From Kiritimatiellia bacterium (GTDB lineage: Bacteria; Verrucomicrobiota; Kiritimatiellia; CAIQIC01; Lenti-01): a stretch of DNA of 64,000 nt. The stretch spans positions 42,344 to 106,343 of the forward strand of contig JAFYAC010000018.1 in the NCBI GenBank assembly GCA_017540905.1. Reading direction: 5' to 3'. Below, piece after piece: positions 1,737 through 61,213 of the stretch; the stretch's first letter is position 1, and every line of letters begins with the position of its first letter. Under the pieces are notes generated by a model. The model had not been told where the DNA came from and searched no databases. It saw only the letters and a program-made list of their open reading frames with translations. Both the position numbers and the translations under genes were made by a program.

Positions 1737-1782
1737 TTTCGGGGGGCCGCCGGGGGCTTTGCGGGGAGCGGGACGGGCGCCG

Positions 1783-3601: not shown

Positions 3602-3631
3602 TTGACGGGGCGGGGGAGGGGTGGGTATAAA
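3602..3631 (+). promoter_or_regulatory. Candidate sigma70-type promoter (TTGACG - 18 bp - TATAAA) upstream of the TPR/ExbBD operon
   Basis: Seen directly about 65 nt upstream of the ATG at 3697, in an otherwise GC-rich stretch. Confidence 0.3.
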
Positions 3632-3696
3632 CGGGGGCGTCGGCCGGGGCATGGTCGCCCGGGCCGGACAATTGCTTCGACATCGCGACGACGGAG

Positions 3697-38246: not shown

Positions 38247-39215
38247 TCAGATGTACCGGAAGCGGGCGATTTCGTCCGCCCTGCCGGCCTCGAAGAGCGC
38301 GATGTTGGTGAAGGCGCCGTGCATCATCGCGCGGAAGGAGTCGCCGGTCACGCCGGCGATGTGGGGGGTGAGGATGGCGTTGTCGAGGGCCTTGAGCGGA
38401 TAGTCGTCGGGGAGCGGCTCCTGCACGTGGGCGTCGATGCCCGCGAAGGCGAGCTTCCCGCCGCGCAGGGCGTCGGCCAGGGCCTGGACGTCGACGATCT
38501 GGCCCCGCGCGGTGTTGACCAGGATGGCGCCGTCCTTCATGCGGGCGATGGCGTCCGCGCCGACCAGGTTGCGCGTCGCGTCGGTCAGCGCGCAGTGGAT
38601 GGTGACGATGTCGGAGCGGGCCAGCAGGTCGTCCAGGGGGACGAACTCCATGCGGTTCTCCTCCTCGAAGGCGGCCGGTTCCCGGACGAGGTTGCAGTAG
38701 AGGATGGAGACGCCGAAGGGCTTGAGCAGCGCGACCAGGGCCTTGGCGATGTTGCCCATGCCGACGATGCCGACGGTTTTCCCGCGGAGTTCGGCGGTCT
38801 GCACGCCCTGTTCCTGCTTTTTCCAGACGCCGTTGCGGGTGTTGGCGTGGATGGCCGTCAGCCTGCGGAGGCAGGCCAGGATGAGCATGAGCGTGTGCTC
38901 GGCGCCGCTTTGGGCGTTGACGCCCTGGTTGACGTAGAGGGGGATGCCGTGCGCGCGGATGGCGCCGAGGTCCAGCGCGTCGAGGCCGACGCCGGAGCGC
39001 TGGATCATCTTCAGGCGGGGCGCGTTGTCCAGGACGTCCGCGGTCAGCTTCATGCGGCCGCCGGCGAGGATGTAGTCGGCGCCGCGGGCCTGCGCGACCA
39101 GGCAGTCGTGTTCCTGGCGGTCCAGGAATTCGAGGGCGAAGCCGGCGGGGAGTTCGCCCTCGACGATTTCCAGCGGGGCCCCCGTGTAGCGGTTTGTCAG
39201 CAGAATGGTTTTCAT
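38247..39215 (-). CDS. D-isomer-specific 2-hydroxyacid dehydrogenase (NAD-binding)
   Basis: 322 aa; GKTVGIVGMGNIAKAL Rossmann motif and the catalytic LVNTARG ... TPHIAG region. Confidence 0.85.
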   Translation of the reverse strand: MKTILLTNRYTGAPLEIVEGELPAGFALEFLDRQEHDCLVAQARGADYILAGGRMKLTADVLDNAPRLKMIQRSGVGLDALDLGAIRAHGIPLYVNQGVNAQSGAEHTLMLILACLRRLTAIHANTRNGVWKKQEQGVQTAELRGKTVGIVGMGNIAKALVALLKPFGVSILYCNLVREPAAFEEENRMEFVPLDDLLARSDIVTIHCALTDATRNLVGADAIARMKDGAILVNTARGQIVDVQALADALRGGKLAFAGIDAHVQEPLPDDYPLKALDNAILTPHIAGVTGDSFRAMMHGAFTNIALFEAGRADEIARFRYI

Positions 39216-39229
39216 GGCGGCAGCTCCCG

Positions 39230-40495
39230 TCAGTCGATCGAAATCCACGCGATCGGTTCGCCCTTTTCGTTCTCGATGCGCAGGTGGGACAGCATGTCTT
39301 CGGCGACCTTGCGGCGTCCTTCCTCGGGCAAAAACTTGTAGAGGACGCTGCCGATGACCTGCGCGGTGGTGCCGGCCTTGCCGACGACCGTCCCGGGCGA
39401 GAGGGCCGCGCTGGCCCGCAGCACGCGGGGGACCTTGGAGAGGGCTTCGAAGCCGTCCATCCGGGCAATCCGCTCGCCGGGCGTCCCGAGGATCCGCAGC
39501 ATGCCGTAGTGCTCGCGGAACCAGGGGGTCTCGCGGTCCGCGTCCCAGTCCTGGGCGCACCCGCCCGTCACGGCGAACTGGATGAGGAGCGCCAGCTCGT
39601 CGACGCCGGTCTGGTCCTGCACCAGCTGGTAGTGCTGGCCGCCGCTGGGGCGGTAGCACATCTCGCAGAAGTAGAAGGAGGAGTCGTCGACGAACGCCTG
39701 CAGGGCGATCATCCCGTTGCGGAAACCGTTGGCCTTGAGCATGCGGACGACGGCGGCGTCGACCTCATCGATGTAGCGGCGGGTGTATTTGGAGGGGTAT
39801 TCCGAATAGGCCGACACGGAGGACCCCGAGTCAGGGGCCTTGTACACCAGGCGGTCGTCCGTGGTGGAGAGGCGGACGTCGCCGTCCGCGGCGAAATAGG
39901 AGACGGCGACGTTGTCACAGTCCAGGTACTTCTCCACCATAATCTTCTTGCAGGCCGAGAACGACATCGCGTAGTCGAACGCCGCCTTCAATCCGTCCGG
40001 GCCGGTGCAGCGGATGACGCCTCGGGAACCACTGTTGTCCACGGGCTTGAGCATGAGGGGGAACCCGGTGCGCGCGGCGAAGGCTTCGGCTTCGGCCGGC
40101 ACCGACGTGGATATGCCGGGAATCACCGGCACGCCGGCGGCGAGGCACGCCTCCTTGAACACGGATTTTTCCGTGGCGACGGCGATGGACCGAGCGTCGC
40201 CGTAGCAGGGCAGGCCCGCCTCCTCGCAGATGCGCAGGTAGAAGGGCATGTAGGAGTCGGTGAATCCGGTGAGGACGCCGTCGATGCGCTCCTCCCGGAC
40301 CAGGCGCACGATGGCGTCGATGTCCGAGAAGTCGATGTCCCGGTACTCGTCGGCCAGGAGCTTGGCGGGGGCCTTGTCCAGGGGGCGGTTGTCGGTCACG
40401 ATGGTGTGCACGCCCAGTTGCCGGGCCTTCGCGACGATGCCGCCGATCAACCGGGTGCTGCCGAGGACAAGCAGTTTCTTGCCGTGTATGTTCAT
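39230..40495 (-). CDS. ATP-grasp domain protein (carbamoyl-phosphate-synthase L-chain-like ligase), copy 3
   Basis: About 422 aa; pre-ATP-grasp plus ATP-grasp layout (KKLLVLGSTRLIG ... FPLMLKPVDNSGSRGV). Track ORF extends upstream; start set at MNIHGKK. Confidence 0.7.
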   Translation of the reverse strand: MNIHGKKLLVLGSTRLIGGIVAKARQLGVHTIVTDNRPLDKAPAKLLADEYRDIDFSDIDAIVRLVREERIDGVLTGFTDSYMPFYLRICEEAGLPCYGDARSIAVATEKSVFKEACLAAGVPVIPGISTSVPAEAEAFAARTGFPLMLKPVDNSGSRGVIRCTGPDGLKAAFDYAMSFSACKKIMVEKYLDCDNVAVSYFAADGDVRLSTTDDRLVYKAPDSGSSVSAYSEYPSKYTRRYIDEVDAAVVRMLKANGFRNGMIALQAFVDDSSFYFCEMCYRPSGGQHYQLVQDQTGVDELALLIQFAVTGGCAQDWDADRETPWFREHYGMLRILGTPGERIARMDGFEALSKVPRVLRASAALSPGTVVGKAGTTAQVIGSVLYKFLPEEGRRKVAEDMLSHLRIENEKGEPIAWISID

Positions 40496-40517
40496 GCCCG
40501 CAGGGGTTCCTTCCTTT

Positions 40518-41492
40518 TCAGGGAATTGATTCCCCTGTGTAGCACAGTTGGACGGCTTCTGCCAAGTATTCCATCTCCTCCGGCCCGTACCGCTGGTCGA
40601 GGGGCAGCGGCAGGATGTCGCGCGCCAGGCGGCTTTCGGCCGCGTCCTCCCCGCACCAGCCGGAGACGGAGGGCCAGAGGGTCGGGACGTAGATGCGCCG
40701 GGCCTGGAGGCGCTTGCGGACGGCGGCGCCATTATCCAGCAGCAGCGGGTACATGAAGGTGCCGGGGGCGTCGGGGAGGGCCAGGCCGTTGAGCCCGCCC
40801 AGGCGGGCGTGGAGGAGCGCGTAGTTCCTCTCGCGGACTTCCCGCACGCGCATATAGTCGATGCCGCGGAGGAGGGTTTGGGTCAGCCTGGACATCCGCT
40901 TGACGGGTTCCGCGGCGAAGCGGACGTTGTTCGCGACGTATTCGGCGTAGAACTCGGAGGCCGGGCGCTCGACGCGGCCGAGGAGGAAGCGCATGCGGTC
41001 GAAGGATTCGTCGAGGGGGAGGCCGTCGCGGTCGCCGGGGGCGTCGGAGTACAGGAACGCGCCGTCGGCCACGCCGAAATACTTGCGGCACGTGTAGAGC
41101 GTGTCCACGCCGGGGAGCGGCGGCTGGAAGTAGCTCTGGGCGTTGTCCACGACGACGCGTCCGCCGAAGCGTGCCGCGACGGCGGCGATTTCGTCGTTGC
41201 CGAACCGGGAGTAGTAGTTGACGAAGTAGAACCACTCGCCCTCCCCAAGAGCCACCTCTTCCGCGGGCCGCAGGTCGGGGCCGATGCCGTAAAACGCCCG
41301 CGGAACCCCCTCGCGGTCGCATACGCCCGTCACGGAATCGCAAATCAGGCGGGGAATCCACAGCTTCCTGATGCCGCGCGCGTGGAGGAGCCAGGCCAGG
41401 GCGTTGCGGCCGCAGTTGAGGGCCAGGGCCCCCCCGTGCAGCAGGGGGCGGTCGCCGGCGTCCAGCTCGATGTAGCCGCCGATCTCCTTCAC
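40518..41492 (-). CDS. DegT-like PLP-dependent enzyme (GTG start overlapping the upstream stop)
   Basis: About 324 aa with weaker DegT/WecE-like similarity (ALNCGRNALAWLL ... LYTCRKYFGVADGAFLY). Family assignment is tentative. Confidence 0.5.
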   Translation of the reverse strand: MKEIGGYIELDAGDRPLLHGGALALNCGRNALAWLLHARGIRKLWIPRLICDSVTGVCDREGVPRAFYGIGPDLRPAEEVALGEGEWFYFVNYYSRFGNDEIAAVAARFGGRVVVDNAQSYFQPPLPGVDTLYTCRKYFGVADGAFLYSDAPGDRDGLPLDESFDRMRFLLGRVERPASEFYAEYVANNVRFAAEPVKRMSRLTQTLLRGIDYMRVREVRERNYALLHARLGGLNGLALPDAPGTFMYPLLLDNGAAVRKRLQARRIYVPTLWPSVSGWCGEDAAESRLARDILPLPLDQRYGPEEMEYLAEAVQLCYTGESIP

Positions 41493-42697
41493 GGCGAGGT
41501 CTCCCGCACGATGACGCGGATGTGCCTGCGGATGTCGCGGAGCACCGACGCCATTTCGTCCGCGCCCGGGAACCGGAAGAACACGATGCCCAGTGCGTAG
41601 GCCGCGTGGGTGAAGCGGTGGACCTCCGCGCCGGGCTCCTTGTAGATGCACTTGCGGACGATGAAAGGCTCGATTGCCGGATCGAATTCGATGCGTTCGA
41701 GGATGCCATCGCGGTCCGCATGCAGGTTGTGGGTCGCGCAGTACGGCGTGGGGGCGCGGTCCGGCACCGACACGCTTTCGCCCATGGCGGCCCGCACGGA
41801 CATCTCGACCACGTCCACCCCGAAAATCAGCCCCAACAGGTCCGGAATCATGTTCCCGCCGCTCCGGGGGCCGATGTCGATGGGGAACACGCGGCCGGAC
41901 TTGTCCACGACCAGCTCCACGTTCATCGGGCCGAAGCGGATGCCGAGGGCGTCCACCAGCCGCTGCAGCGTCTCCTCCACGGCCGCGAGGTCGGCCGGGG
42001 CCAGGAGCGCGGGATAGCTCTTGCCGACGGGCACCAGCGGATTCACGGAGGCATCCCGGTGGCAGTTCATCAGGCCCCACTGGATGACCTTGCCGTCCGA
42101 CACGAAGATGTCGCCGCCGACCAGGTACGGATGCCGCTTTTCGATGAACTCCTCCACCACGATCCGGCCGCCGCGCGAGAACGAAAACGCGAAATCCACC
42201 GCCGCCGGGTACCCCGACCGCCCCTGCACGACCGTGACCCCCTTGCTGCCCGACGAATCCACCGGCTTGACGATGAGCGGGAAAACAAACCCGTCCAGCG
42301 CGGCGGCGAGCGCCGACTCCCGGTCCGCAAAGCCCGCCGCCTTCGGCGTGTTGAACCCGTTCTCCGCCAGGAACCTCCGGAAGCGGTCCTTGTTGCAGAG
42401 GATTTCGACGGCCCCGCACGGATTGGTCGGCAGCCCCAGTTTCTCCGCCACGAAGGCCGCCGTGGGCGCCGCCGGGTCCGACGCGTAGGCGATGATCCCG
42501 TCGATCTTCTCCTTCCGCGCCACCGCCAGGATAGCCTCCCGGTCCGTCGTGCTGGTGCAGTAGAACTTGTCCGCGTGGAACTGCCCCGGATTGTCCGGCA
42601 GGTAATCGCACAGCACCGTCCGCAGCCCCAACCTCCGCGCCGTCTCCAGCGCCACCACCTGCTGTGCCGAACCGCCCAGGGAAAGGAGCGTCTTCAT
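41489..42697 (-). CDS. ATP-grasp domain protein, copy 1 and first gene of the cluster
   Basis: 402 aa; LIVKPVDSSGSKGV and a downstream ATP-grasp core. GGAGG RBS before the ATG at 42697. Confidence 0.7.
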   Translation of the reverse strand: MKTLLSLGGSAQQVVALETARRLGLRTVLCDYLPDNPGQFHADKFYCTSTTDREAILAVARKEKIDGIIAYASDPAAPTAAFVAEKLGLPTNPCGAVEILCNKDRFRRFLAENGFNTPKAAGFADRESALAAALDGFVFPLIVKPVDSSGSKGVTVVQGRSGYPAAVDFAFSFSRGGRIVVEEFIEKRHPYLVGGDIFVSDGKVIQWGLMNCHRDASVNPLVPVGKSYPALLAPADLAAVEETLQRLVDALGIRFGPMNVELVVDKSGRVFPIDIGPRSGGNMIPDLLGLIFGVDVVEMSVRAAMGESVSVPDRAPTPYCATHNLHADRDGILERIEFDPAIEPFIVRKCIYKEPGAEVHRFTHAAYALGIVFFRFPGADEMASVLRDIRRHIRVIVRETSP

Positions 42698-42865
42698 GTT
42701 GCCTCCTTCCCGCCGGGGAAGAAGGGCAAGCATTAATGAACATTGGTTCGATTTGGTTGGCATGAGCAACATCCCTCAATGGGTGTGTGTATATCAGTGC
42801 AAGAGGCGTGAAACAAGGGAATTCCATGCTGGAACGCGAGGGGGGCAGAAGGCGGGCAATCGGAT

Positions 42866-43228: not shown

Positions 43229-43270
43229 AATGCTTGGGCTGGATCCATTCATGCACTCCGCGTGGCAACG

Positions 43271-43708
43271 TCACGCAAACGGATCCGACAGAATCCGGAA
43301 GCCGGCGTCCCGGAAATCGCGGACATTGCGGGTGTGGAACTCGTCCACGCCCCAGTACTTGAGCGTCTCGGCGAGCCGCGTGTCATGGATGCGGCGGCGG
43401 GCGAATCCCGTGGTGGCAGCGCGGCGCCACACGGCATTCATGGCGGACGGCGACGGCGGGATATCCACGACCGTCCAGGCCGGATTGCCCCGGTACGCGG
43501 CAACCACGGCCACCGCTTCCCCGGCCGAGAGCGGATGCTTCTGCACGACCGGGTTGCGCAACAGGCAATACAGCTCCACGAGCACCTGCTCCGCTACAAC
43601 GAACTGCGGATCATCGGCATGGGCGGCAATGAAAGCGTGCGCCGCGGCGTGGTTGGCGTCATCGGGATTGCAGGCCGCGAAAAAAACGTTGGTGTCGCAG
43701 GAAACCAT
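43271..43708 (-). CDS. vapC: PIN-domain toxin of a type II toxin-antitoxin pair (VapC family)
   Basis: 145 aa with the PIN acidic residues in conserved positions (SCDTNV, VAEQVLVEL, IHDTRLA, TRNVRDF). Confidence 0.75.
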   Translation of the reverse strand: MVSCDTNVFFAACNPDDANHAAAHAFIAAHADDPQFVVAEQVLVELYCLLRNPVVQKHPLSAGEAVAVVAAYRGNPAWTVVDIPPSPSAMNAVWRRAATTGFARRRIHDTRLAETLKYWGVDEFHTRNVRDFRDAGFRILSDPFA

Positions 43709-43720
43709 GCCCCTCTCCAG

Positions 43721-43975
43721 TCAATCGTCTCGGTCCGCGTAGATGCGTTCCCGCCAGTCCTCGTCCGCGAACGGATCGGCGACAAGCCCGGTGGAGCGGC
43801 AGAGCGGCGGCTTCCAGCGAACCGGTTCCTCCGCCACGCCTTCGACGGCATGGACGGTGATGTAGAGTTCCAGCGCGTTGCGGCAAACCTCGGCAAGGCT
43901 GCTTTCCCGGCTTTCCGCAAAGCGGCGGACACGGGAGAACAGCGCATCGGGTAGTTGGACTTGGGTACGGGTCAT
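43721..43975 (-). CDS. Putative antitoxin (VapB-like) encoded immediately upstream of the PIN toxin
   Basis: About 85 aa beginning MTRTQVQLPDALFSRVRRFAESRESSLAEVCRNALELY, ending 10 nt before the vapC start. Size and position are typical for an antitoxin. Confidence 0.5.
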   Translation of the reverse strand: MTRTQVQLPDALFSRVRRFAESRESSLAEVCRNALELYITVHAVEGVAEEPVRWKPPLCRSTGLVADPFADEDWRERIYADRDD

Positions 43976-44216
43976 GGTGTGGAAAATACATCGCCGCCGT
44001 TTTGATGTCAATCAGGCACGAAGGTTTGCCTGCGGGAAAGGCTACTGCGGCTGTAAGTGAAAGAAGCGAAGAGATTCCCCTTGTTCAACTTTGCACTTGC
44101 CCCAATCCTCCGGGCAAGGCATTGTTTTCTTGAAGACCCTTCCGACACGCCCAGAAAAGACATTGGAAGGGATTCCGACAAAACCCATCCCAGGTGGACA
44201 GGAAGGATTGCAAAAA

Positions 44217-47200
44217 ATGAAGCGAAACACAGATTTGTTTTTGAGTAAACTTTTCGTTCCCACGCTATTCACACTTTTTACGCTCTTTGTTGTTCCTTTG
44301 TTGGCATCATCCGCCAATGCGATGACCGCCGAGAAAGCCGCAGATTTGTTTTTGGCGAACAATTCGGTGCCTCAGGATGTCCAGAGGAGAAATGTACCTC
44401 GCAGTTTTACCGACAAGGCGCCGGATGCCACCGATATTTGCTTTGTTGTCAAAGCGGGGGATTCCACGGCAGGTAATATGGGGGTTACCTGTGGCCATGG
44501 GGAGGACATTACGTTTTCCATCCCCATTCGGCGATACTATGGAACGGCCGATCAAATCCAAAGGCTGATTCAAAACGGTGGATTGCCGAAAAAGGCCAAG
44601 CTCCGCATGTTTGTCTATGATGTGGATTCTGCCGGTGCACCTAGTTATGGTTATTCACCTGAAAAAGATATTCTCTATGTCAACGGAGGATGCAAGGTAG
44701 GGGAACTCTATGGAGCAGACAATGAATGGAGAGAGGATGAGTTCGAAATCGATATCTCCAACTTGAAGTTCCCCTCTTCGCCCGGGGCTGTTGCAGAAAA
44801 CACGTTTAAGATTGTTGTTGACTACAATAACGAAGGGTGGATTACAAAGGTTAATTGGGTTGCGTTGGAGATACCTGCGGCACCACCTGTGGTGATATCG
44901 CATGGCATACGCAAGAAGCAAGGCAAGCCAACCCTGCCAGATTTAGTGGAAGAAATCGAGGCACTAGGTTTGCCAACCCATACATTCAGCTATCGACAAA
45001 ATGGTAACTCATCAATTCGCGATGGGGCGAGCCAACTCGCAGGAGAAATCGTCAAAGCCAAAGAAATGTGGCATGTCGACAAAGTGACGATAGTTGCACA
45101 CAGCATGGGCGGATTAAAGGCACGTGAATACACGACGGCATTTGATCCCCAGGGACTTAGCGTTGACAGAGTCCTTCAGATTGCAACCCCAAATGGGGGG
45201 GCTGAGTTGGCCGACATCCAACAAATGACAGAAATTGGGTTGGAAAATCCCGATCTTGATCCTGGTATGACAGCACCAATCCAGTTTTTGTTATGGCTTA
45301 AGGATTTTACTGGACCAGCCTATGCAGATTTGACGGTAAAAGCGATGGCCGCATACAACAAAGAACATAAATTAAATAGCAATGTAAAGTATTCCGTTAT
45401 CGCTGGTGATGTTGGGGACGGAAGCGATACCGTTGTTTCGGTCTCCAGTGCGCATACGATGGTTCAGCCTAATACCTTTTCTCCTTTACAACTTCCGTAT
45501 GCAAGTCATTCAGGCCTTGTTGACAAGCCAACTTTTGGAACCCGGGGATGTGTTGGTACGACGGTCGCCTGCCTGAAAAAAGACCTCCTTGCTAAAAGAG
45601 GAGTGAAGAATCAAAATTCAAAACGAATACAGATTCAGTCGAATCAATATAAGAAAGAGGTCAAGAAGGAACAAGTATATATTCAATCAGGAGTTCAAGC
45701 TGCTCCATTGGAGCTGACACAAATTCCAATCTCTATTAAAAACTCTTCTCCCGTTCGGGTTTGGCTTTTTGTTGAAAATGGCGATATTTCATCAATCAAG
45801 CTCGTTGATTCTAATGGTATCGAACATCAAGAATCCTCAGATGGTGTGTATATCTCCATGCTTGATTACTGTGGAATTATCTCTCTACCAAATCCAGTAC
45901 CTGGGGTGTGGAGGCTCAATTTTGAATCGTCTGGTGTCGAGTGTCGTGCCTGGGCACTTCTTGTCCATGAAGATGATTCCAATATAGAATTAAATGCTAA
46001 GTTGGCGGCAGAAACTGTACACGTTGGCAATGCCTTCTCTGTGTCTATGAAGCCAATGATAGATGGCAAGTATCAGACGGGGCGTTCATGTGTCGTTATT
46101 GTGCGCTTCCCGGACAGCTCTTCTGCAGTCTACCGACTACAGCACATAGGAAACGGGGTGTATTCGGCTCCAATTCCTGCACCTATCGAGGGGCGGTATT
46201 CAATGGTTGCTCAGATGACAATTGACGGTAAGGTTTATACAAGTCATTTTTTCGGGAGTGCGCATGCCTCTACCGCAACCATCGGCGCGGACGCTGGAAG
46301 CGGCCCCGTGGACGAGGATGGCGACGGGATGTACGACTGGCTCGTGGCAAAGATTGGCATTGCCGGTGCGGATGCATCGAAGGCCTACCGCGTCTTGGCA
46401 GAACTGGTCGATGCGGACGGGGCGCACATCGAATGGGCAACTGGAACTGCAGAGGCCGGGGAGACCTTTGCCGAATTGTATTTCAACGGGGCCGTCGTTT
46501 TCGAGCACGGAAAGACTGCAAAATATGTCATCACCGATGTCCGGCTTTTCGAAACGGGCGACGACTGGGAGGTGCAGACAGATGCCCGCTCGAACTGGCT
46601 GCAACTGGACGGGAGCACATGGGCGACATTCAACCACGAGCTGGTTTCCGTCGCTGGCACGGGTTCGGATTCCATTGTTTGGCCTACTGGCTCCCAAACG
46701 GGGAATCTCTCCGTCGGACTCGATGTCAACTTCGATGTTGCCATTACGGGAGCCTACAACTACAGCGCTTCGCTGAGGGCTTCCGATGGCGCCCTGATTT
46801 CGTCCGCATACGGAACGACAAGGCTCTCGTCATCAGTTTCCGAGGGCATCGGAACGCAACGCGTCTCCATGACCTTTTCAGGTGCGGACATCATCGCCGC
46901 CGGAAAGGCGGGCCCCTGGGTTGTCACGGACGTGCTGCTTTGGAATAGCAGCAACGAGCTTTCTGCCGAAGGCGAATATGAGACGCGGGCGTGGAGTGTG
47001 GGTGACTTCAAGACGACAACCCTATCGAAGCTGGCGATTTCCGGTCCCGCGAGCGTGGCGTCCGGCAACTCCGCCACCTACACCTGCAACGCGAGCTACT
47101 CCGACGGGACGAGCAAGCGCGTGTCGCCGACGTGGACGCTGTACTCCGGCGGATCTTACGGCAGCATCACGTCGGGCGGTGTGTTCACGGCCTGCGAGAC

Positions 47201-50200
47201 CACGGTGGAGAGGACCGTGACCATCCAGGCCACGTTCGGAGGAAAGACGGCGAAGAAGACGGTGACGGTGGCACCCAAGGAGGTGCAGACCGTATCCTTC
47301 GACAGGGGTGACGGGACCGCGGCCGCGGCATCGCGCACGTACACGGTCGCAGAGCAATACGGTTCCTTCCCCATGGCGACGTTGGCCGGACAGGCCTTTG
47401 TGGGGTGGTTCACCCACCGGGTGGGCGGGACGCAGGTGCTGGAAACGGACGTCGTGCCCCCTTCTTGGCCCTCGCGGACGCTTTTTGCGCACTGGACAAC
47501 AGAGCAACGGTTGGGGTTCAATGCCAACGGGGGAACCTGCTCGAACATCCTGATTTTCACCACGATTGGCGGATCGTACCCGGCACTCCCGACGGCCAGC
47601 CGGCCCGGATATGCCTTCACCGGCTGGTACACAACGGCCAGCGGCGGGAGCCTGGTGCAGGCCGGTGACGCGGTGACCGCCACGGCGGAACGGACCCTTT
47701 ACGCCCACTGGACGAGGAAGCAAGTGCTTTACTTCAACGGCGTCGACGGGGAACCCGCCGTGGCCTGCCGAACCAACACCATCGGGGCTGCCTACGGCAA
47801 GCTCCCGACGGCGACGTTGGCCGGGCAGGCTTTTGTGGGGTGGTTCACCCACCGGGTGGGTGGGACGCAGGTGCTGGCGACGGACATCGTGCCGGAGTGG
47901 ACGCCGCGGACGCTTTTCGCGCACTGGACAAATGTGCAGACGGTCGTTTTCGACGCAAACGGTGGCAGCACCCCCGAGTCGCAGCGGGCGAGGACAATTG
48001 GGGCATCGTACGGAACTCTGCCGGCGGCGACACGGTCGGGACATGCACTGCTGGGTTGGTACACGAAAGCAAGCGGGGGAACGGCCGTCTCGGCCGGCGA
48101 CACGGTGACGGCCGTGGCCACGCGGACGCTGTATGCGCACTGGACGGACAAGCAGGTGGCAACCTTCAAGGGCAACGGAGGGACGCCGTCGACGCAGAAA
48201 ACCACGAACACCATCTATGCGACATACGGGGCCATGCCGACGGCCAAACAGTCCGGGCACGTATTCCTCGGCTGGTTCAACGCGGCCGTGGGCGGGAAGC
48301 AGGTGTACACGAACTCGACGGTCACCTTGGCCGCGGCGCGGACGCTGTACGCGCACTGGACCGACCAACAGGTAGTGACATTCAGGGGCAACGGAGGGAC
48401 GCCCTCGACGCAGAAGACGACGAACACGATCTACGCGAAGTACGGGACATTCCCATCGGTGACATGGGCGAACCACGTGTTCCTCGGGTGGTACACCGAG
48501 GCCTCGGAGGCGGACGGCAAGCGGGTGTACACGAACTCGACGGTCACGCTGGCCGACACCAGGACGCTTTGGGCTCAGTGGACGGACAAGCAGGTGGTCA
48601 CGTTCAGGGGGAACGGCGGGTCACCGGACGTACAGCGGCTCACGAACACGATGGGCAAGGCGTACGGCACCCTGCCGGAGCCGAAGCGCTCGGGGCAGGT
48701 GTTCCAGGGCTGGTTCACGGCGGAAGAAGGGGGAACCCAGGTGAAAGGGACGGACAAGGCGACGGCCGCAACCGCACGCACGCTGTGGGCCCACTGGACC
48801 GACCGCCAGGTGACGGTATTCAAGGGCAACGGGGGGACGCCCAAGACCCAGCGGATGACGAACACCATCTATGCCGCTTACGGGGAGTTGCCGACCGCGA
48901 CGCTGTCGGGACACGTGCTCACGGGGTGGTACACGGCGGCCGATGGCGGCAAACGGGTGTACACGAACTCGACGGTCACCTTGGCTGCGGAGCGGACGCT
49001 GTACGCGCACTGGAGCGACCGGCAGGTGGTGACGTTCAAGGGCAACGGTGGGACACCCTCGACGCAGAAGACGACGAACACGATCTACGCGAAGTACGGG
49101 GCGTTCCCGTCGGTGTCGTGGGCGAACCACGTGTTCCTCGGGTGGTACACGGCCGCCTCCGAGGGGGACGGCAAGAGGGTGTACACGAACTCGACGGTCA
49201 CGCTGGCCGGCACGAGGACGCTTTGGGCGCAGTGGACGGACAAGCAGGTGGTCACGTTCAGGGGGAACGGCGGGACACCGGATGTCCAGCGGCTCACGAA
49301 CACGATGGGCAAGGCGTACGGCACCCTGCCGGAGCCGAAGCGCTCGGGGCATGTGTTCCAGGGCTGGTTCACGGCGGAAGAAGGGGGAACCCAGGTGAAG
49401 GGGTCGGACAAGGCGACGGCGGCGACCGCACGCACGCTGTGGGCCCACTGGACCGACCGCCAGGTGACGGTATTCAAGGGCAACGGGGGGACGCCCAAGA
49501 CCCAGCGGATGACGAACACAATCTATGCCGCTTACGGGGAGTTGCCGACCGCGACGCTGTCGGAACACGTGCTCACGGGGTGGTACACGGCGGCCGATGG
49601 CGGCAAACGGGTGTACACGAACTCGACGGTCACCTTGGCTGCGGAGCGGACGCTGTACGCGCATTGGACCGACCAGCAGGTGGTGACGTTCAAGGGCAAC
49701 GGGGGGACGCCCTCGGCGCAGAAGACGACGAACACAATCTACGCGAAGTACGGGGCGTTCCCGTCGGTGTCGTGGGCGAACCACGTGTTTCTCGGGTGGT
49801 ACACGGCCGCCTCCGAGGGGGATGGCAAGAGGGTGTACACGAACTCGACGGTCACGCTGGCCGACACCAGGACGCTTTGGGCTCAGTGGACGGACAAGCA
49901 GGTGGTCACGTTCAGGGGGAACGGCGGGTCACCGGACGTCCAGCGGCTCACGAACACGATGGGCAAGGCGTACGGCACCCTGCCTGAGCCGAAGCGCTCG
50001 GGGCAGATGTTCCAGGGCTGGTTCACGGCGGAAGAAGGTGGAATCCAGGTGAAGGGGACGGACAAGGCGACGGCGGCGACGACTCGCACGCTGTACGCGC
50101 ACTGGAGCGACCGGCAGGTGGTGACGTTCAAGGGCAACGGTGGGACGCCCTCGACGCAGAAGACTACCAACACCATCTATGCGGCATACGGAACCCTGCC

Positions 50201-50843
50201 GTCTGCGACGCGGTCCGGGCAGGTGCTTGAGGGGTGGTATACGGCGGCCGACGGCGGCAAGCGGGTGTACACGAATTCCACGGTGACGCTGGCTGCGGCG
50301 CGGACGCTGTACGCGCACTGGACGGACCAACAGGTGGTGACCTTCAAGGGCAACGGGGGTAGGCCTGGGACCCAGAAGACGACGAACACGATTTATGCGA
50401 AGTATGGCGCGTTCCCGTCGGTGGAGTGGTCGGGCCACGTGTTCCAAGGGTGGTACAACGCGGCGGAAGGCGGCAAGCGGGTCTACACGAACTCCACGGT
50501 GACGCTGGCGGCCACGCGGACGCTGTACGCGCACTGGACCACGGGCCGGGGTTTTGCCATCACCGCAATCGCCGTGGGGGCGGATGGCGGGGAGGATGGA
50601 CCTGCGCCGCGGGCGGTCCGCGGAGAGGAGAAGGCGGAGAACGTCTGCCGGCTCCGGTTCGAACTGTCCGCGGGGACGGAATACGAAATCCAGTGTACGC
50701 CGTCGATGGCCGGCGAATGGGAGACCGTGGAGCGCCTGACTGCGGAGACGGACGGGGAAGTCGAGGTCGAAATCGAAGTGCCCGGTGGTGAGAAGGGATT
50801 CTTCCGGCTGGTCGTCTTCGGGGACGCCGGGGAAGCGGACTGA
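44217..50843 (+). CDS. Giant secreted protein (about 2208 aa): signal peptide, alpha/beta-hydrolase (lipase/esterase-like, GxSxG AHSMGG) domain, BIG2 Ig-like domain, then about 24 Listeria-Bacteroides (Flg_new) repeats
   Basis: Start set at MKRNTDLF (signal peptide with a Leu/Phe-rich core, RBS AGGAAGGA). VTIVAHSMGGLKAREYT serine-hydrolase motif. ISGPASVASGNSATYTCNASYSDGTSKRVSPTWTLYSGGSYGSITSGGVFTA BIG2-like segment. Many FxGWYTxxxGGxxVxxxxxVTxxxxRTLYAHWT repeats. Confidence 0.85.
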   Translation: MKRNTDLFLSKLFVPTLFTLFTLFVVPLLASSANAMTAEKAADLFLANNSVPQDVQRRNVPRSFTDKAPDATDICFVVKAGDSTAGNMGVTCGHGEDITFSIPIRRYYGTADQIQRLIQNGGLPKKAKLRMFVYDVDSAGAPSYGYSPEKDILYVNGGCKVGELYGADNEWREDEFEIDISNLKFPSSPGAVAENTFKIVVDYNNEGWITKVNWVALEIPAAPPVVISHGIRKKQGKPTLPDLVEEIEALGLPTHTFSYRQNGNSSIRDGASQLAGEIVKAKEMWHVDKVTIVAHSMGGLKAREYTTAFDPQGLSVDRVLQIATPNGGAELADIQQMTEIGLENPDLDPGMTAPIQFLLWLKDFTGPAYADLTVKAMAAYNKEHKLNSNVKYSVIAGDVGDGSDTVVSVSSAHTMVQPNTFSPLQLPYASHSGLVDKPTFGTRGCVGTTVACLKKDLLAKRGVKNQNSKRIQIQSNQYKKEVKKEQVYIQSGVQAAPLELTQIPISIKNSSPVRVWLFVENGDISSIKLVDSNGIEHQESSDGVYISMLDYCGIISLPNPVPGVWRLNFESSGVECRAWALLVHEDDSNIELNAKLAAETVHVGNAFSVSMKPMIDGKYQTGRSCVVIVRFPDSSSAVYRLQHIGNGVYSAPIPAPIEGRYSMVAQMTIDGKVYTSHFFGSAHASTATIGADAGSGPVDEDGDGMYDWLVAKIGIAGADASKAYRVLAELVDADGAHIEWATGTAEAGETFAELYFNGAVVFEHGKTAKYVITDVRLFETGDDWEVQTDARSNWLQLDGSTWATFNHELVSVAGTGSDSIVWPTGSQTGNLSVGLDVNFDVAITGAYNYSASLRASDGALISSAYGTTRLSSSVSEGIGTQRVSMTFSGADIIAAGKAGPWVVTDVLLWNSSNELSAEGEYETRAWSVGDFKTTTLSKLAISGPASVASGNSATYTCNASYSDGTSKRVSPTWTLYSGGSYGSITSGGVFTACETTVERTVTIQATFGGKTAKKTVTVAPKEVQTVSFDRGDGTAAAASRTYTVAEQYGSFPMATLAGQAFVGWFTHRVGGTQVLETDVVPPSWPSRTLFAHWTTEQRLGFNANGGTCSNILIFTTIGGSYPALPTASRPGYAFTGWYTTASGGSLVQAGDAVTATAERTLYAHWTRKQVLYFNGVDGEPAVACRTNTIGAAYGKLPTATLAGQAFVGWFTHRVGGTQVLATDIVPEWTPRTLFAHWTNVQTVVFDANGGSTPESQRARTIGASYGTLPAATRSGHALLGWYTKASGGTAVSAGDTVTAVATRTLYAHWTDKQVATFKGNGGTPSTQKTTNTIYATYGAMPTAKQSGHVFLGWFNAAVGGKQVYTNSTVTLAAARTLYAHWTDQQVVTFRGNGGTPSTQKTTNTIYAKYGTFPSVTWANHVFLGWYTEASEADGKRVYTNSTVTLADTRTLWAQWTDKQVVTFRGNGGSPDVQRLTNTMGKAYGTLPEPKRSGQVFQGWFTAEEGGTQVKGTDKATAATARTLWAHWTDRQVTVFKGNGGTPKTQRMTNTIYAAYGELPTATLSGHVLTGWYTAADGGKRVYTNSTVTLAAERTLYAHWSDRQVVTFKGNGGTPSTQKTTNTIYAKYGAFPSVSWANHVFLGWYTAASEGDGKRVYTNSTVTLAGTRTLWAQWTDKQVVTFRGNGGTPDVQRLTNTMGKAYGTLPEPKRSGHVFQGWFTAEEGGTQVKGSDKATAATARTLWAHWTDRQVTVFKGNGGTPKTQRMTNTIYAAYGELPTATLSEHVLTGWYTAADGGKRVYTNSTVTLAAERTLYAHWTDQQVVTFKGNGGTPSAQKTTNTIYAKYGAFPSVSWANHVFLGWYTAASEGDGKRVYTNSTVTLADTRTLWAQWTDKQVVTFRGNGGSPDVQRLTNTMGKAYGTLPEPKRSGQMFQGWFTAEEGGIQVKGTDKATAATTRTLYAHWSDRQVVTFKGNGGTPSTQKTTNTIYAAYGTLPSATRSGQVLEGWYTAADGGKRVYTNSTVTLAAARTLYAHWTDQQVVTFKGNGGRPGTQKTTNTIYAKYGAFPSVEWSGHVFQGWYNAAEGGKRVYTNSTVTLAATRTLYAHWTTGRGFAITAIAVGADGGEDGPAPRAVRGEEKAENVCRLRFELSAGTEYEIQCTPSMAGEWETVERLTAETDGEVEVEIEVPGGEKGFFRLVVFGDAGEAD
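47290..50550 (+). repeat. Intragenic tandem repeat region; includes three near-identical roughly 660-bp super-repeats (about 48340-50320), each encoding three Flg_new modules
   Basis: Long DNA stretches recur almost verbatim at about 48584, 49244 and 49904 (caggtggtcacgttcagggggaacggcggg...). Confidence 0.8.
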
Positions 50844-50977: not shown

Positions 50978-51144
50978 AAATGGCTGGCGGGACAGCGGCT
51001 CCCCGGAGGGGGATGGGATGGCCTGCCCCTTTTCCAATGCCGGGAAATCTTTTTCTGGCGTCGGTGGGCGTTTTGGGCTGGATATATGGCGGGAATTGGC
51101 GGAAAATGGAGGACAGTTTTCGTACCGGGAAAGGATAGAAGTCC

Positions 51145-52899
51145 ATGAAGAGATTGCCGAGCATCGTGTCCACCTGCCTGCTGGTCGCCGCCTGTTGCGC
51201 GGCCCCCGCGCCCGCGGCCAGCCCCTACCGCGTGCCGGTGCACTTCGCGTACACCAACGACGCCGGGGTGGGCTACAGCTGGTTCGTCGTCGGCTCCCAC
51301 CCCGACGTGGGCGCATGGGACCCGCTCCGCGCCGCGCCGCTCGCCTGGCACGAGGGGAACGTCTGGAGCGCCGACATCGGCATCCAGGCGGGGACCGAGC
51401 TCGAGTACAAGTTCGTCAAGCGCCCCATCGACGCCGCCGAATACCCCGACGGCAACAACACCGAATGGATGGAAGGCGGCAACCTCTCCCTCTCCGTCCC
51501 CGCCGAGCCGGACGCGCCCGGCAAGCGGGTGGTGTTCCTGTGCGACTGGCCGGAACCGGTGGAGCTGTGGTACAGCATGCTCGACACGGCGAACTACGAT
51601 GCCACCAACGGCTGGAACGTGACCACCATGAAGAAGACCGGCGACGCCCGCTACGAACTCGACGGCGTCGGCGAGGCCGGGCAATGGATGCGCTTCACCT
51701 TCCGCCATCCGAACGAGGGGGGGGATGACTGGTGGTACCACTACTACCAGACCGAGGCGGACTTCTGGTCGCCGCTGGACGCTTTCTGCATCCGCGACGG
51801 GCAGGTGTTCGACTACGAACCCGTCCCCACGGATGGCGGCTGGGTCTCCGATTCCCAAATCATTTCCACCAACGTTTATTCAACCGCCGAGGGCATCGAC
51901 GGGCGCGAAATCCGCATCTTCCTCCCGCGCGGCTACAACGAGAACACCAACCGCTTCTATCCCGTCGTCTACTTCTCCGACGGACAGAACGTGTTCCATC
52001 CGGGCGGGTCCTTCGGTTGCTGGTACGCCGAAAGCGCCGCCGACCGCGAAATCCGCGGCGGGCGCATGCGCGAGGCCATCCTCGTCGCGGTCCCCTGCCG
52101 CGAAACGCCCGTCCCCGTCCCGGGCGCCACCGCGGACACCGGCCGCCTCTGGGAATACCTCCCGTCCACCGACACGCTCATGACCACCGACCTACAGGGG
52201 CTCGGCGCGAACTATGCGGACTTCCTCATCCACAACGTCAAGCCCACGCTCGACTACAACTTCCGCACCCTTTCCGACCGCGAGAACACCGCGCACATCG
52301 GTTCCTCCGCCGGCGGGTTGCTCTCACTCTACCTCGGCACGGCCTTCGGGGACGTCTTCGGGCTGGTCGCCCCCATGTCCGGGGTCTACAACGAGGAATA
52401 CATCCCCAAGTTCCGCCAGTGGTGCCTCGAACACCCCGACGCCGTGGCCAAGCCCAAGCGCGTATGGCTCGACACCGGCACCGAGGAAACCAACATCGAC
52501 GGCCTCAACCTCTACGAATCCAACTGGGACGCCCTGACGCTCCTCCTCTACGCCGGGCACGCGCCCAACAAGAGCCTGCATTTCGGCGTCTACAGCGGCT
52601 GGCAGGGCGAACACAACGAACCGGCGTGGGCCCAGCGCATCGACGAGGTGTTCGACTTCCTGCTGCCCGTGACCGACGAAGCCAATCCGCTCCGACGCCC
52701 GGAAATCCGGCTCGACGGCCTGAAGATGGACTTCCAGCTCTACGGCGGCGCGAAGTACGAAGTGAAGCGCGCGGAAAGCCTCCTCGAACAGGACCGGGCG
52801 CAATCCGTCTGGAGCACCCCCGCCGCCGTGGATCGCCCCTGGACCAACGCGAGCTACACGGTCGGGGCTCCCGGCTTCTACTGGATCGAAGGCAAGTAG
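51145..52899 (+). CDS. Secreted esterase (putative esterase / esterase-D alpha/beta-hydrolase family) with two N-terminal CBM20-like starch-binding-type modules
   Basis: Signal peptide with a lipobox-like Cys. Two roughly 100-aa modules with the VxF...W...GxW pattern, then RIFLPRGYNENTNRFYPVVYFSDGQNVF and GSSAGG esterase motifs. Confidence 0.65.
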   Translation: MKRLPSIVSTCLLVAACCAAPAPAASPYRVPVHFAYTNDAGVGYSWFVVGSHPDVGAWDPLRAAPLAWHEGNVWSADIGIQAGTELEYKFVKRPIDAAEYPDGNNTEWMEGGNLSLSVPAEPDAPGKRVVFLCDWPEPVELWYSMLDTANYDATNGWNVTTMKKTGDARYELDGVGEAGQWMRFTFRHPNEGGDDWWYHYYQTEADFWSPLDAFCIRDGQVFDYEPVPTDGGWVSDSQIISTNVYSTAEGIDGREIRIFLPRGYNENTNRFYPVVYFSDGQNVFHPGGSFGCWYAESAADREIRGGRMREAILVAVPCRETPVPVPGATADTGRLWEYLPSTDTLMTTDLQGLGANYADFLIHNVKPTLDYNFRTLSDRENTAHIGSSAGGLLSLYLGTAFGDVFGLVAPMSGVYNEEYIPKFRQWCLEHPDAVAKPKRVWLDTGTEETNIDGLNLYESNWDALTLLLYAGHAPNKSLHFGVYSGWQGEHNEPAWAQRIDEVFDFLLPVTDEANPLRRPEIRLDGLKMDFQLYGGAKYEVKRAESLLEQDRAQSVWSTPAAVDRPWTNASYTVGAPGFYWIEGK

Positions 52900-53004
52900 G
52901 CGTTTGCGGGCAGGGTGGGGGAGTGCGCACCGGCAAGGTTCGCGTACGCCCCGCACGGGGGGCGCGGGGCGGCGGAGGCCGCGGGATGGGCGGGAGAGGC
53001 CGGC

Positions 53005-54204: not shown

Positions 54205-55122
54205 ATGAACACACAAGCCCCCCGCATCGTATCGAACACCGCAAGAACCCTCTCTGCGGTCCACTCCGTCTTCAGCGTCAACGCCACCGTGCGCGACAAC
54301 GACTGGATGCTCCTCCTCGCCATCACGCCCCCCATCCTCGCCGCCTACGCCGCGACCGAGGTCGGCGCGTGGGTCATCCACGAAATCGCCCGGCAAATCC
54401 GCATCCACGAAAAGCGCCCCGCCTCCCCCTCCCAGCGCGGGACCCCCACGCCCAAGGAACTCGTCGCCGACTGGCGCGAAGAGCCCCGCACGCTCGCCAC
54501 CCGGCTCCGCCTGGGTTCGCGCCTGGCCGACCTCGATCCCACGCTCGACCACACGCTCCTGCGCAGGACCCTCCCGAACGGCAAGACCGTCATCCGTTCC
54601 CGGAAGGGCGGGGTGAAAGGCTGGCTGGAAGACCGTCGCGTCGCCATCCCGTACTCCACGGCCATGCGCTACAAGAAACTCGCGCAGCGGCTCCGTCTGG
54701 TCCTGCGGCTGGACGACCGCATTCCCCTTGAGTGGCTGATTTCCGGCGTGCCGGCGGGGCAGCACCTTCCCGCCGAGCTCCAGAGCGCCTTTGGGGCGGC
54801 CGCCCGGCGGCTTGCGGTCATCCTGCGCGAGAACCCGACGCTGGTGGCGCTGGGGCGCTACGCGGAGCGGAAGCTCGGGATTGTGCGGTTGGTGGCGGTG
54901 CGGAAATCATGGGGGCGGGGAGGGGTGAAAAAGGGGAAAACACACGATATTTCTGTAATCTCGCGAGATAGGAGGGCCCGGGAGGAGGTCGAGCGGACGG
55001 AGGCGACGAAACGGGCGATGGGGCGGGTGCTGGAGGCGCGGAATCTGGCGGGGCGCGCACTGCATCTCCAGAACCGCCTCAGGGCGTGGATTGAGGGGTT
55101 GCGGGCCCAGGGCGATTCTTGA
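54205..55122 (+). CDS. Hypothetical protein, paralog B of the three-member family
   Basis: 305 aa, collinear with paralogs A and C. Track ORF 52915..55122 is an upstream run-on. Confidence 0.6.
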   Translation: MNTQAPRIVSNTARTLSAVHSVFSVNATVRDNDWMLLLAITPPILAAYAATEVGAWVIHEIARQIRIHEKRPASPSQRGTPTPKELVADWREEPRTLATRLRLGSRLADLDPTLDHTLLRRTLPNGKTVIRSRKGGVKGWLEDRRVAIPYSTAMRYKKLAQRLRLVLRLDDRIPLEWLISGVPAGQHLPAELQSAFGAAARRLAVILRENPTLVALGRYAERKLGIVRLVAVRKSWGRGGVKKGKTHDISVISRDRRAREEVERTEATKRAMGRVLEARNLAGRALHLQNRLRAWIEGLRAQGDS

Positions 55123-55214
55123 CGCGTCGTGCCGGTCGGGCGGGGTGCGCAAAGATGGTTCCGTGGGGGGGGCGCCGTTGGAGTGCGCCGGACGGGGAGG
55201 GAAGGCGGAAGGGG

Positions 55215-59612: not shown

Positions 59613-59844
59613 GACGATACCTCCGGTGCCGATTGCGTTGCATCGCGCACTGCGCGACGAATTCCGGGGGCAACTTATTCCATTTGCCCCTCTGCCTCAA
59701 CCCAAAACGACGCGGGGACATGCCCCCGCAATGCTCCGCAGGGAAGCGAAGCGGGCGATGGGGGCGATGGGGGCGATTGGGTGCTTGAGTTTTGGGCGGG
59801 GGGAGGGTATCGTGGACGGAAATGTGGAAAACGAGGAATTGAGA

Positions 59845-60033
59845 ATGAATCTGACGCTTGGCTACATCGATCCGGGGAGCGGGAGCATCATGCTCCAGGT
59901 GCTGCTGGCTTCGTGCGTGGGAGGGGTGGCGCTCTTCTGGGGGAAGCTGAAGGCGCTGTTCGGCGGGAAGAAGCCGGACCAGGACGCCGCGGAGGGGCCG
60001 AAGGACGGGGACAAGCCGTCCGGGACGGCATGA
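59845..60033 (+). CDS. Small (62 aa) putative membrane peptide, translationally coupled to the downstream gene
   Basis: RBS-like GAGGAA; MNLTLGYIDPGSGSIMLQVLLASCVGGVALFWGKL hydrophobic core then a Lys/Asp-rich tail. Stop lies 4 nt before the GTG of the next gene. Could be non-coding. Confidence 0.3.
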   Translation: MNLTLGYIDPGSGSIMLQVLLASCVGGVALFWGKLKALFGGKKPDQDAAEGPKDGDKPSGTA

Positions 60034-60037
60034 AGCG

Positions 60038-61213
60038 GTGTTCGGCCGCCTGATCCAGCAGTGGAAGGACGGCCGGCGCGCGTGGGCCGGGTTCCAGGCC
60101 TTCAACGCGCTGCCGCGGAGCCGCCGGAAAATCGTGTTCTACGCGGAGACCGCCGCGGACTGGGCGTATCTCGGTCCGACGGCCGCCGCGCTGGAAAAAA
60201 TGGGGCGCGGCTGGGCCGCGGTCTGTTCGGATCCGCGGGATCCGGCCCTGGCGCGGGACAATGCGTTCTACGTGGGGTTCGGCATGCCGCGGACGGCCCT
60301 GTTCCGGAACATCGACGCGGACGCGTTCGTGATGACGTTGCCGGACATCGAGACCTTCCAGCTCAAGCGGTCGGTCAATCCGGTGCATTATTTCTACATT
60401 TTCCATTCCATCGCGTCGATGCATCGGGTCTACCGGGAGCACGCGATGGACGGCTACGACACCATCCTGTGCGTCGGGCCGCACCACGAGCGGGAAATCC
60501 GGAAGACCGAGGAAGTGTACGGGCTGGAGCCGAAGCGCCTGCTGAAGCACGGATACAGCCGGCTCGACACGCTGATGCACGACGTGGCCGCCTTCCGCGA
60601 GGCCCACCCGGGCGCGGACGAGGTGCCGGGAAATCCGCTGCGGGTCCTCGTGGCGCCGACGTGGGGCGAGTGTTCACTGGTGGAGCACGGCCTGGAGGGG
60701 CTGCTGGACGCGCTGCTGCGGGCGGGATTCCAGACCACGCTGCGCCTGCACACCATGACCAAGCGCCACAAGCCGGGCCTGGTGCCGGAGCTGATGCGGC
60801 GGTTCGGCGCGGCCGGGCTGGCCATCGACCCCGACATCAACACGACGCAGGCGCTGGTGGAGTCGGACATCATGGTCAGCGAGTGGAGCGGCTCGCCGCT
60901 GGAATACGCGTTCGCGCTGCTCAAGCCGGTGATTTTCGTGGATACGCCGCCGAAGGTCCACAATCCCGCGTTCGGCAAGCTGGGTTTGCCCTGCCTGGAG
61001 GAGGAGATACGCGGCCTGATCGGCGAAATCGTGCCCGAGGGGCGCTGGGAGACGCTGCCGGACACCGTGCGCCGCCTGGTGGCCGCGCGGCCGGAATGGA
61101 AGGACCGCATCGCGGCGGTGCGGGACGCAACCGTCTACAACCTGGGGCGCAGCGGGGAAGCCGGGGCCGAGGGGATCGTGCGGACGCTCGGGGAATTGGG
61201 GAAGGGCGGCTGA
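60038..61213 (+). CDS. CDP-glycerol glycerophosphotransferase (TagB/TagF)-like protein
   Basis: 391 aa, GTG start. VLVAPTWG resembles the TagF-family APTWR motif, with a C-terminal Rossmann-like half. Family call is moderate confidence. Confidence 0.5.
   Translation: MFGRLIQQWKDGRRAWAGFQAFNALPRSRRKIVFYAETAADWAYLGPTAAALEKMGRGWAAVCSDPRDPALARDNAFYVGFGMPRTALFRNIDADAFVMTLPDIETFQLKRSVNPVHYFYIFHSIASMHRVYREHAMDGYDTILCVGPHHEREIRKTEEVYGLEPKRLLKHGYSRLDTLMHDVAAFREAHPGADEVPGNPLRVLVAPTWGECSLVEHGLEGLLDALLRAGFQTTLRLHTMTKRHKPGLVPELMRRFGAAGLAIDPDINTTQALVESDIMVSEWSGSPLEYAFALLKPVIFVDTPPKVHNPAFGKLGLPCLEEEIRGLIGEIVPEGRWETLPDTVRRLVAARPEWKDRIAAVRDATVYNLGRSGEAGAEGIVRTLGELGKGG

Follow-up and report, generated by a model that had tools for sequence, protein, structure and literature searches.

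A low-GC, lipase-like head and a GC-rich repeat stalk in one gene of a Kiritimatiellia bacterium

The stretch of DNA analyzed here, referred to below as the window, comprises 64,000 nucleotides of contig JAFYAC010000018.1 from a Kiritimatiellia bacterium (assembly GCA_017540905.1, positions 42,344 to 106,343 of the forward strand). The gene under study lies at 44217-50843 of the window, and its product is best read, from the structural model described below, as a secreted, surface-displayed lipase or esterase carried on a repeat stalk, the enzymatic activity being predicted. The gene and its parts are given below in window coordinates; GC stands for guanine-plus-cytosine content, GC3 for GC content at third codon positions, aa for amino acid residues, and pLDDT for the predicted local distance difference test score of the model.

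44014 to 44216, plus strand: low-GC leader and putative promoter region (GC 0.51), beginning at the right edge of a VapBC cassette.
44217 to 50843, plus strand: whole gene for the predicted secreted or surface lipase-adhesin, a single uninterrupted open reading frame (ORF) of 2208 aa starting at ATG 44217.
44217 to 44321, plus strand: predicted signal peptide, aa 1-35, with a putative cleavage site after A-N-A read by eye and a helix at residues 14-30 in the model.
44406 to 44882, plus strand: N-terminal beta-sandwich, aa ~64-222, family-specific (pLDDT >90; conserved alignment columns).
44883 to 45596, plus strand: alpha/beta-hydrolase (lipase) domain, aa ~223-460 (Pfam, conservation and Foldseek).
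45672 to 46277, plus strand: Ig-like beta-sandwich domains, aa ~486-687 (model and Foldseek).
46203 to 46205, plus strand: internal ATG, Met663, the start codon in public gene calls.
46278 to 47045, plus strand: two beta-sandwich domains opening with D-x-D-G-D-G, aa 688-943 (model); segment B below.
47046 to 47282, plus strand: Big_2-like Ig domain, single copy, of native composition (GC3 1.0 over codons 944-978).
47283 to 50546, plus strand: array of Flg_new repeats (Listeria-Bacteroides repeat, TIGR02543), 14 Pfam repeats, GC3 0.8-0.95.
50547 to 50840, plus strand: C-terminal domain, single copy, of near-native composition (GC3 0.81).

The structure of the N-terminal part of the protein, hereafter the head, was modeled with AlphaFold2 over residues 1-940 (mean pLDDT 83.7; predicted template-modeling score 0.73). 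Searched with Foldseek, the model returned as its best match 6WPX, the propeptide form of the Bacillus licheniformis lipase BlEst2 (E = 3e-19; target template-modeling score 0.54-0.56), followed by the DUF4785 protein 4KH9 and the lipases 1EX9 and 6CL4 (both ~1e-8); BlEst2 was also the sole match of a sequence search of the PDB. The nucleophile elbow, first taken from the sequence to be GHSMGG, actually reads AHSMGG, and an A-H-S-M-G elbow is typical of Bacillus family I.4/I.5 lipases. It carries Ser296 of a putative catalytic triad Ser296/Asp404/His431; in a 32-sequence alignment, H295, S296, G298 and G299 are invariant and D404 and H431 are at least 90% conserved. Among Pfam models, DUF915 passes its cut-off (26.6 bits against 22), DUF7379, Palm_thioest, PGAP1 and Abhydrolase_1 remain under theirs, and no NCBIfam lipase model matches the head. 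The alpha/beta-hydrolase module proposed in the sequence-only reading is thus borne out by the predicted fold, the Foldseek matches and the conserved Ser-Asp-His triad. In the stalk, PF09479 scores 430.9 bits in 14 stretches and TIGR02543 148.6 bits (above its cut-off), with a 216-bp period and a 654-bp super-unit (noted over 48117-50540) and units 80-91% identical to one another. Homologues of the Big_2-like domain were found in Pontiella desulfatans and in one Kiritimatiellae metagenome-assembled genome (MAG).

The base composition of the gene departs sharply from that of its surroundings. The 64-kb window has a mean GC of 66.6%, and sliding GC drops to 0.41-0.49 between 44000 and 46250 against 0.62-0.76 elsewhere, rises past 46250 through values of 0.55-0.62 and reaches the local norm near 47000; the lowest other 1-kb value in the window is 0.597. 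Over 44217-46216 GC is 0.462, whereas the remaining 2-kb intervals have a mean of 0.676 (standard deviation 0.022, minimum 0.616), which places the tract at z = -9.8. In-frame GC3 runs at 0.32-0.53 up to ~46150, at 0.53-0.70 up to ~47050 and at 0.78-0.95 beyond. The change points were located by a maximum likelihood fit over the third-position series, for which the Bayesian information criterion chose three segments:

Segment A: codons 1-687, 44217 to 46277, plus strand, GC3 0.44.
Segment B: codons 688-943, 46278 to 47045, plus strand, GC3 0.68.
Segment C: codons 944-2208, 47046 to 50843, plus strand, GC3 0.87.

The sequence-only reading had described a low-GC tract covering the first ~2 kb of the gene and ending near 46250. 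The depression itself is confirmed and, when calculated precisely, GC is anything but uniform along the gene; the tract is longer than described, however, and ends in two steps, at 46278 and 47046. The high GC attributed to the repeat region and to the neighboring genes also holds, the latter having GC3 values of 0.80-0.98 (0.91 when pooled; n = 25 genes). So does the leaning of the first segment toward A/T-ending codons: 36% of the codons of segment A belong to those that are rare in native genes (each <3 per 1000), against 3.5% in native genes, and an index modeled on the codon adaptation index (CAI-like index) is 0.19 for segment A against 0.73±0.10 for native genes. The tail, with a CAI-like index of 0.53, sits at the low edge of the native range. 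Amino acid bias was ruled out as the source of the low GC, since it is at third codon positions that the signal stands out most.

In the model of Lawrence and Ochman, acquired genes show atypical GC and codon usage at first and then ameliorate toward those of the host; its regressions predict GC values of 0.553, 0.392 and 0.459 at the first, second and third codon positions (GC1, GC2, GC3) of an equilibrium gene at an overall GC of 0.462. Segment A, whose overall GC is precisely 0.462, has values of 0.537, 0.409 and 0.440; it matches this expectation and shows no sign of partial amelioration. Both composition steps coincide with domain or homology boundaries. The first (nt 46278) sits at the motif GADAGSGPVDEDGDG, where the last two domains of the head begin, and the second (codon 943/944) lies within about a dozen codons of the end of the head as shared with its relatives (aa ~932). 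Upstream of the gene, the 5' intergenic region had been called AT-rich. Its GC is indeed below the norm, although only moderately so (0.51 over 44014-44216 against 0.63 in other intergenic stretches), and this value suggests, rather than proves, that the enzymatic module came with its own promoter. A scan of the plus strand of the leader for promoters yielded no sigma-70-like site, the sole match being the vapBC promoter on the minus strand.

A contrast of this kind within one gene could arise from a chimeric contig, or from two genes or a pseudogene read as one, the more so as the window comes from a MAG and public gene calls start at 46203. To address this possibility, the protein encoded by the downstream esterase gene was located on 15 public contigs, from which six loci (L004-L009) representing different samples and assemblers were fetched. 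All six match the window at 99.9-100% outside the repeat array, including the left edge of the tract, both composition steps and the downstream gene, and each agrees with the window at every one of the first 3000 nt of the gene. The ORF is intact in five of the six, L007 being broken only by a run of Ns within the repeat array. Because six independent assemblies carry an identical junction with no differences over 3 kb, misassembly, a caveat attached to the sequence-only reading, is excluded as the source of the junction. The uninterrupted run of 2208 codons, the existence of relatives with the same order of head and segment B domains, and the single AlphaFold2 chain that spans the A/B step with high confidence likewise make an artefact of any of these kinds extremely improbable. 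As for the public calls, all of those retrieved start at Met663, just before the rise in GC, except in L007 where the run of Ns breaks the call; 662 aa are thereby lost, and with them the signal peptide and the whole lipase domain. The unusual codons of segment A account for this truncation. An exact look-up found the full-length protein to be absent from a collection of ~15 billion proteins, and a look-up of YchF went equally unmatched, since public calls are truncated or use other starts. Proteins encoded next to the gene correspond to MBR4188761-69, from a rumen or gut MAG labeled Kiritimatiellae bacterium. Outside the repeats, the six strains differ by 1-4 single-nucleotide polymorphisms per 22 kb and nearly all differences fall in the array, where L004, L006 and L008 lack exactly one 654-bp unit (three Flg_new repeats); the strains being otherwise near-clonal, their polymorphism is silent on the age of the tract.

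The head belongs to a widespread family. An exhaustive HMMER search returned 281 clusters at E<=1e-30, most of them proteins of 1000-2100 residues that match at their N-terminus, and their alignments to the window protein start near residue 60 and end at 931-932. Word-indexed searches for homologues, in comparison, yielded only 5-12 matches (about 6 against the 281 clusters), and with segment B as the query matched the Big_2-like domain only. A metagenome scan added one locus, and a scan of genome contigs was dominated by the generic HSMGG pattern, with only distant lipases among the matches listed. Beyond the head, the tails of family members vary, comprising Flg_new, Flg_new_2, beta-helix, FGE-sulfatase with fn3, DUF11/CARDB and CWB2 domains, and in the nearest relative, L001, homology ends at aa 932 and gives way to leucine-rich repeats. 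As judged from these alignments, residues ~60-932 form a separable module of an N-terminal lipase-head family with varied tails. The composition of the module normally follows that of its host. Across 42 family members, an amino acid proxy for GC (GARP minus FYMINK) is correlated between head and tail (r = 0.81), and in three distant lipases from the genome-contig scan used as composition controls, L013 (Anaerolineae), L022 (Granulicella) and L042 (Woesearchaeota), the GC of the head-homologous region equals that of the rest of the locus. Because heads elsewhere match their hosts, the mismatch seen in the window is a disequilibrium and not a property of the fold.

The sequence-only reading had offered, as one of two accounts, acquisition of the whole gene from a low-GC source followed by homogenization of the repeats, by which gene conversion would have raised the tail to the GC of the host. 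The Flg_new array does evolve in concert, as seen from the similarity of its units and the 654-bp unit by which near-clonal strains differ, and the low-edge CAI-like index of the tail is of a piece with this account. It is nevertheless disfavored because the Big_2-like stretch and the C-terminal domain, both single-copy, also have near-native GC3 (1.0 over codons 944-978 and 0.81, respectively). Moreover, the Big_2-like domain has Kiritimatiellae homologues, the homology to L001 stops at aa 932 where leucine-rich repeats take over, and homogenization of repeats alone cannot lift GC3 to 0.9. We therefore regard whole-gene acquisition as improbable.

The head itself is a mosaic, because its nearest relative changes from one segment to the next. 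At the amino acid level, the N-terminal domain is closest to L001 (74% identity), the hydrolase to L001 (51%) and P0070 (44%), the Ig domains to P0002 (47%), P0070 (45%) and L001 (38%), and segment B to P0070 (79%) and L001 (73%). No obvious recombination site was apparent in a nucleotide alignment around the A/B step. In a neighbor-joining tree of heads, built without support values and with GC class read from the amino acid proxy, the window groups with L001 and P0070, next with P0080, P0082 and P0071, and then with P0072, P0074, P0075, P0076 and P0077; the P0082 cluster is annotated as a Kiritimatiellae MAG protein. All heads in the window's clade of this tree are of the mid-GC type, and tails of the GC type arise at least three times (in P0077, in P0080 and in window/L001/P0070), each time beside members of uniform composition.

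Replacement of one head by another is visible in a relative. The tail encoded by nucleotides 2243-4485 of L068 shares 94-99% identity with residues 1619-2388 of P0289, a protein of 2388 residues that bears a different head of 1600 residues carrying a HELSH motif. The lipase head of L068 has a GC of 0.38-0.44, which jumps to 0.55-0.63 at the junction with the tail. This pair provides direct evidence for an exchange of heads. Two further observations concern relatives of the head. The lipase-head gene of L068 is split over three frames (nt 1-4488), reflecting either a pseudogene or assembly errors. In L002 (nt 2419 onward) and P0291, on two separate contigs, the homologue stops 11 residues past GADAGSGPV, the motif at the A/B boundary, and gives way to DNA with a GC of 31%, a possible insertion or truncation at the point where GC3 steps up in the window.

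The reading that we favor, and which we hold to be probable though well short of certain, is that a foreign mid-GC head was joined by recombination to a native stalk, through repeated import and exchange of heads. The gene would then be a mosaic of three parts whose product, a lipase or esterase exported through the Sec pathway, is carried on a long stalk of repeats. Its head of ~930 residues, in which the signal peptide is followed by a beta-sandwich, then by an alpha/beta-hydrolase of the AHSMG type and lastly by beta-sandwich domains that are Ig-like or have the calcium motif, would carry the composition of a ~46% GC genome and the tail that of the host at 67-68% GC. A mid-GC relative would have passed the head horizontally to a high-GC lineage of Kiritimatiellae, where it would then have been fused, or kept fused, to a stalk of the host type without drifting to host composition; segment B, with its GC3 of 0.68, may be the trace of a further recombination event inside the head, older than or separate from the first. 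Across the family, recombination at domain boundaries would join heads to differing C-terminal tails. We infer the direction, source and date of such a transfer. The proposal that a foreign enzyme module was fused to a native scaffold accordingly retains the separable head, the native composition of the tail and the L068 swap in its favor, but the word "recent" that came with it is unproven, no donor having been found.

Several observations weigh against import and exchange. The search with the head returned no donor and no near-identical relative among ~15 billion proteins, the best matches being 51-59% identical. Phages, plasmids and viral contigs were searched and contained no relatives of the head, which gives no support to carriage by a phage or plasmid, and the tract is flanked neither by an integrase or tRNA gene nor by direct repeats (the window has no tRNA genes). 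Hosts are named for few of the head relatives, and the tree is subject to the limits given above. In addition, five diverged relatives (38-59% amino acid identity) carry low-GC heads, and the four with readable flanks do so in contexts with a GC of 0.60-0.69. L001 has flanks at 0.61-0.69, a head GC3 of 0.36-0.57 and a segment B at 0.5-0.72; L002 has flanks at 0.60; L056 adjoins the core genes for SecF, RpoZ and SmpB, with GC3 values of 0.76-0.86; and the host genes around L068 have GC3 values of 0.75-0.90. The intermediate segment B is common to the window and L001. When 4-fold degenerate sites under identical amino acids were compared between these two, 38% of bases were common in segment A (chance 25%) and 42% in segment B, corresponding to ~1.3 substitutions per 4-fold site, yet GC at these sites (GC4) is ~0.5 in both. 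The same comparisons with L002, L003 and L056 gave values at or near chance, and GC4 of segment A is 0.31-0.59 in the window, L001, L002, L003 and L056. In a rough two-state calculation, the divergence between the window and L001 at an equilibrium GC3 of 0.9 should have brought GC4 to ~0.64-0.76. These data are at odds with one old import that then ameliorated normally. Since GC4 stayed low despite the divergence, either heads with the A/B step were imported repeatedly from an unsampled mid-GC pool, or the head has been kept AT-rich.

The latter alternative holds that the head has long resided in high-GC gut Kiritimatiellae and has been kept AT-rich by a local force, be it selection for rare-codon or AT-rich sequence, which might keep translation of a possibly harmful lipase slow or low or provide binding sites for a silencing protein of the nucleoid, or an exemption from the GC-biased conversion or selection acting on the rest of the genome. 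The low-GC heads of the five relatives, four of them readable in high-GC surroundings (L056 beside its core genes included), the low GC4 at sites near or at saturation, the A/B step common to the window and L001, and the empty donor searches all speak for it. Against it, the heads of other family members track the composition of their hosts, so that the protein itself needs no AT-richness; in the window's own clade, tails of the GC type turn up here and there beside members of uniform composition; a head has been replaced on a near-identical tail (L068/P0289); and all other genes in the window have GC3 values of 0.8-0.98, irrespective of how strongly they are likely to be expressed. We rank import with exchange first because the family tracks host composition, because GC-type tails are scattered and because of the L068/P0289 swap, and we consider long-term maintenance of a low GC possible but rather unlikely. 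More doubtful still is a combination of the two, in which heads would be held far from genomic composition (GC3 of ~0.4 against 0.9) over evolutionary time while being swapped as cassettes on native stalks. If true, this would amount to a heritable failure of amelioration inside a gene, of which we know no system in the host phylum.

A mosaic surface-protein gene produced by domain-level recombination and horizontal transfer is in itself a known phenomenon. Literature searches for base composition in Kiritimatiellae and for mosaics within genes turned up nothing specific. Among known ORFs of dual composition the nearest parallel, if only an analogy, is offered by the Rhs elements of Escherichia coli, in which a GC-rich core and an AT-rich core extension occupy one ORF, a contrast attributed to foreign origin and to recombination swapping one end of the protein (PMC7259588). 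The window gene is likewise one long ORF in which conserved and variable parts differ sharply in composition. Unlike in Rhs elements, it is the enzyme head at the N-terminus that is AT-rich and exchangeable here, not a C-terminal toxin tip, and it is AT-rich relative to a GC-rich host; there are no YD repeats (Pfam gave no Rhs or YD matches on the gene), and the next gene encodes an esterase with a CBM20 domain instead of an immunity protein. The head resembles BlEst2, a lipase with C-terminal beta-sandwich domains (PMC10816834), in the succession of an alpha/beta-hydrolase and beta-sandwich domains and in the A-H-S-M-G elbow. It differs from it (~15% identity) in the addition of an N-terminal beta-sandwich and two further domains, and in its fusion to a stalk of 1270 residues. 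The stalk, for its part, is like those of surface proteins with Flg_new/TIGR02543 repeats, such as the B-repeat regions of internalins, in having 14 repeats that evolve in concert and change in copy number. Unlike internalins, for which models score 100 bits against a cut-off of 1600, the window gene has no leucine-rich repeats and no LPXTG motif, and its repeats bear an enzyme head. Finally, like classical acquired genes, this one has atypical GC3 and codon usage, sits in a variable region and shows GC values by codon position that suit another genomic GC. Unlike them, it has its boundary within the gene, at the limits of domains, and its disequilibrium recurs in diverged relatives, which a single transfer with subsequent amelioration would not predict.

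The units on either side of the gene have histories of their own.

43270 to 44013, minus strand: VapBC cassette of 744 bp (PIN toxin and RHH-like antitoxin) with its own promoter at 44011-43983.
51067 to 52901, plus strand: esterase gene with CBM20, to the right of the giant gene.

The end of the VapBC cassette is the exact left edge of the low-GC leader. The cassette is 91% identical to a copy found beside GmrSD, Macro and AAA defense genes in another Kiritimatiellae species (L057, L061 and L062) and, from this comparison, looks like a mobile toxin-antitoxin cassette. The esterase gene with CBM20 recurs as a block the length of the gene, 93-94% identical in nucleotide sequence, in two other unrelated contexts in relatives (L069 and L073-L076), and CotH variants sit in a different neighborhood. 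Synteny is broken in all relatives retrieved, the VapC, CotH and esterase variants each occurring in different contexts, a pattern that fits a patchwork of apparently independently placed units and an accessory gene. Opposite the CotH gene (55215-59612, minus strand) runs an antisense ORF of 1644 codons (55119-60053, plus strand; GC1 0.90, GC3 0.66); long antisense ORFs were rejected as genes, being artefacts of high GC. Just upstream of the variable region, 38247-42772 (minus strand) holds two genes resembling those for ATP-grasp/L-amino-acid ligases, a 2-hydroxyacid dehydrogenase gene and a gene of the MmgE/PrpD family, which together may form a small cluster for the biosynthesis of a peptide or metabolite.

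Since the public calls discard both the signal peptide and the enzyme, the surface lipase-adhesin is invisible in protein catalogues, and the same bias in gene calling probably hides other foreign N-terminal modules in high-GC MAGs. Word-indexed searches, too, badly under-count the head family. It appears that Kiritimatiellae of the rumen assemble their surface enzymes by exchanging heads on stalks of repeats, and such exchange offers a way of rapidly altering the function of the cell surface. The recurrence of low-GC heads in high-GC relatives, moreover, makes this family well suited to testing whether amelioration always proceeds or whether some genes escape the processes that enrich genomes in GC.

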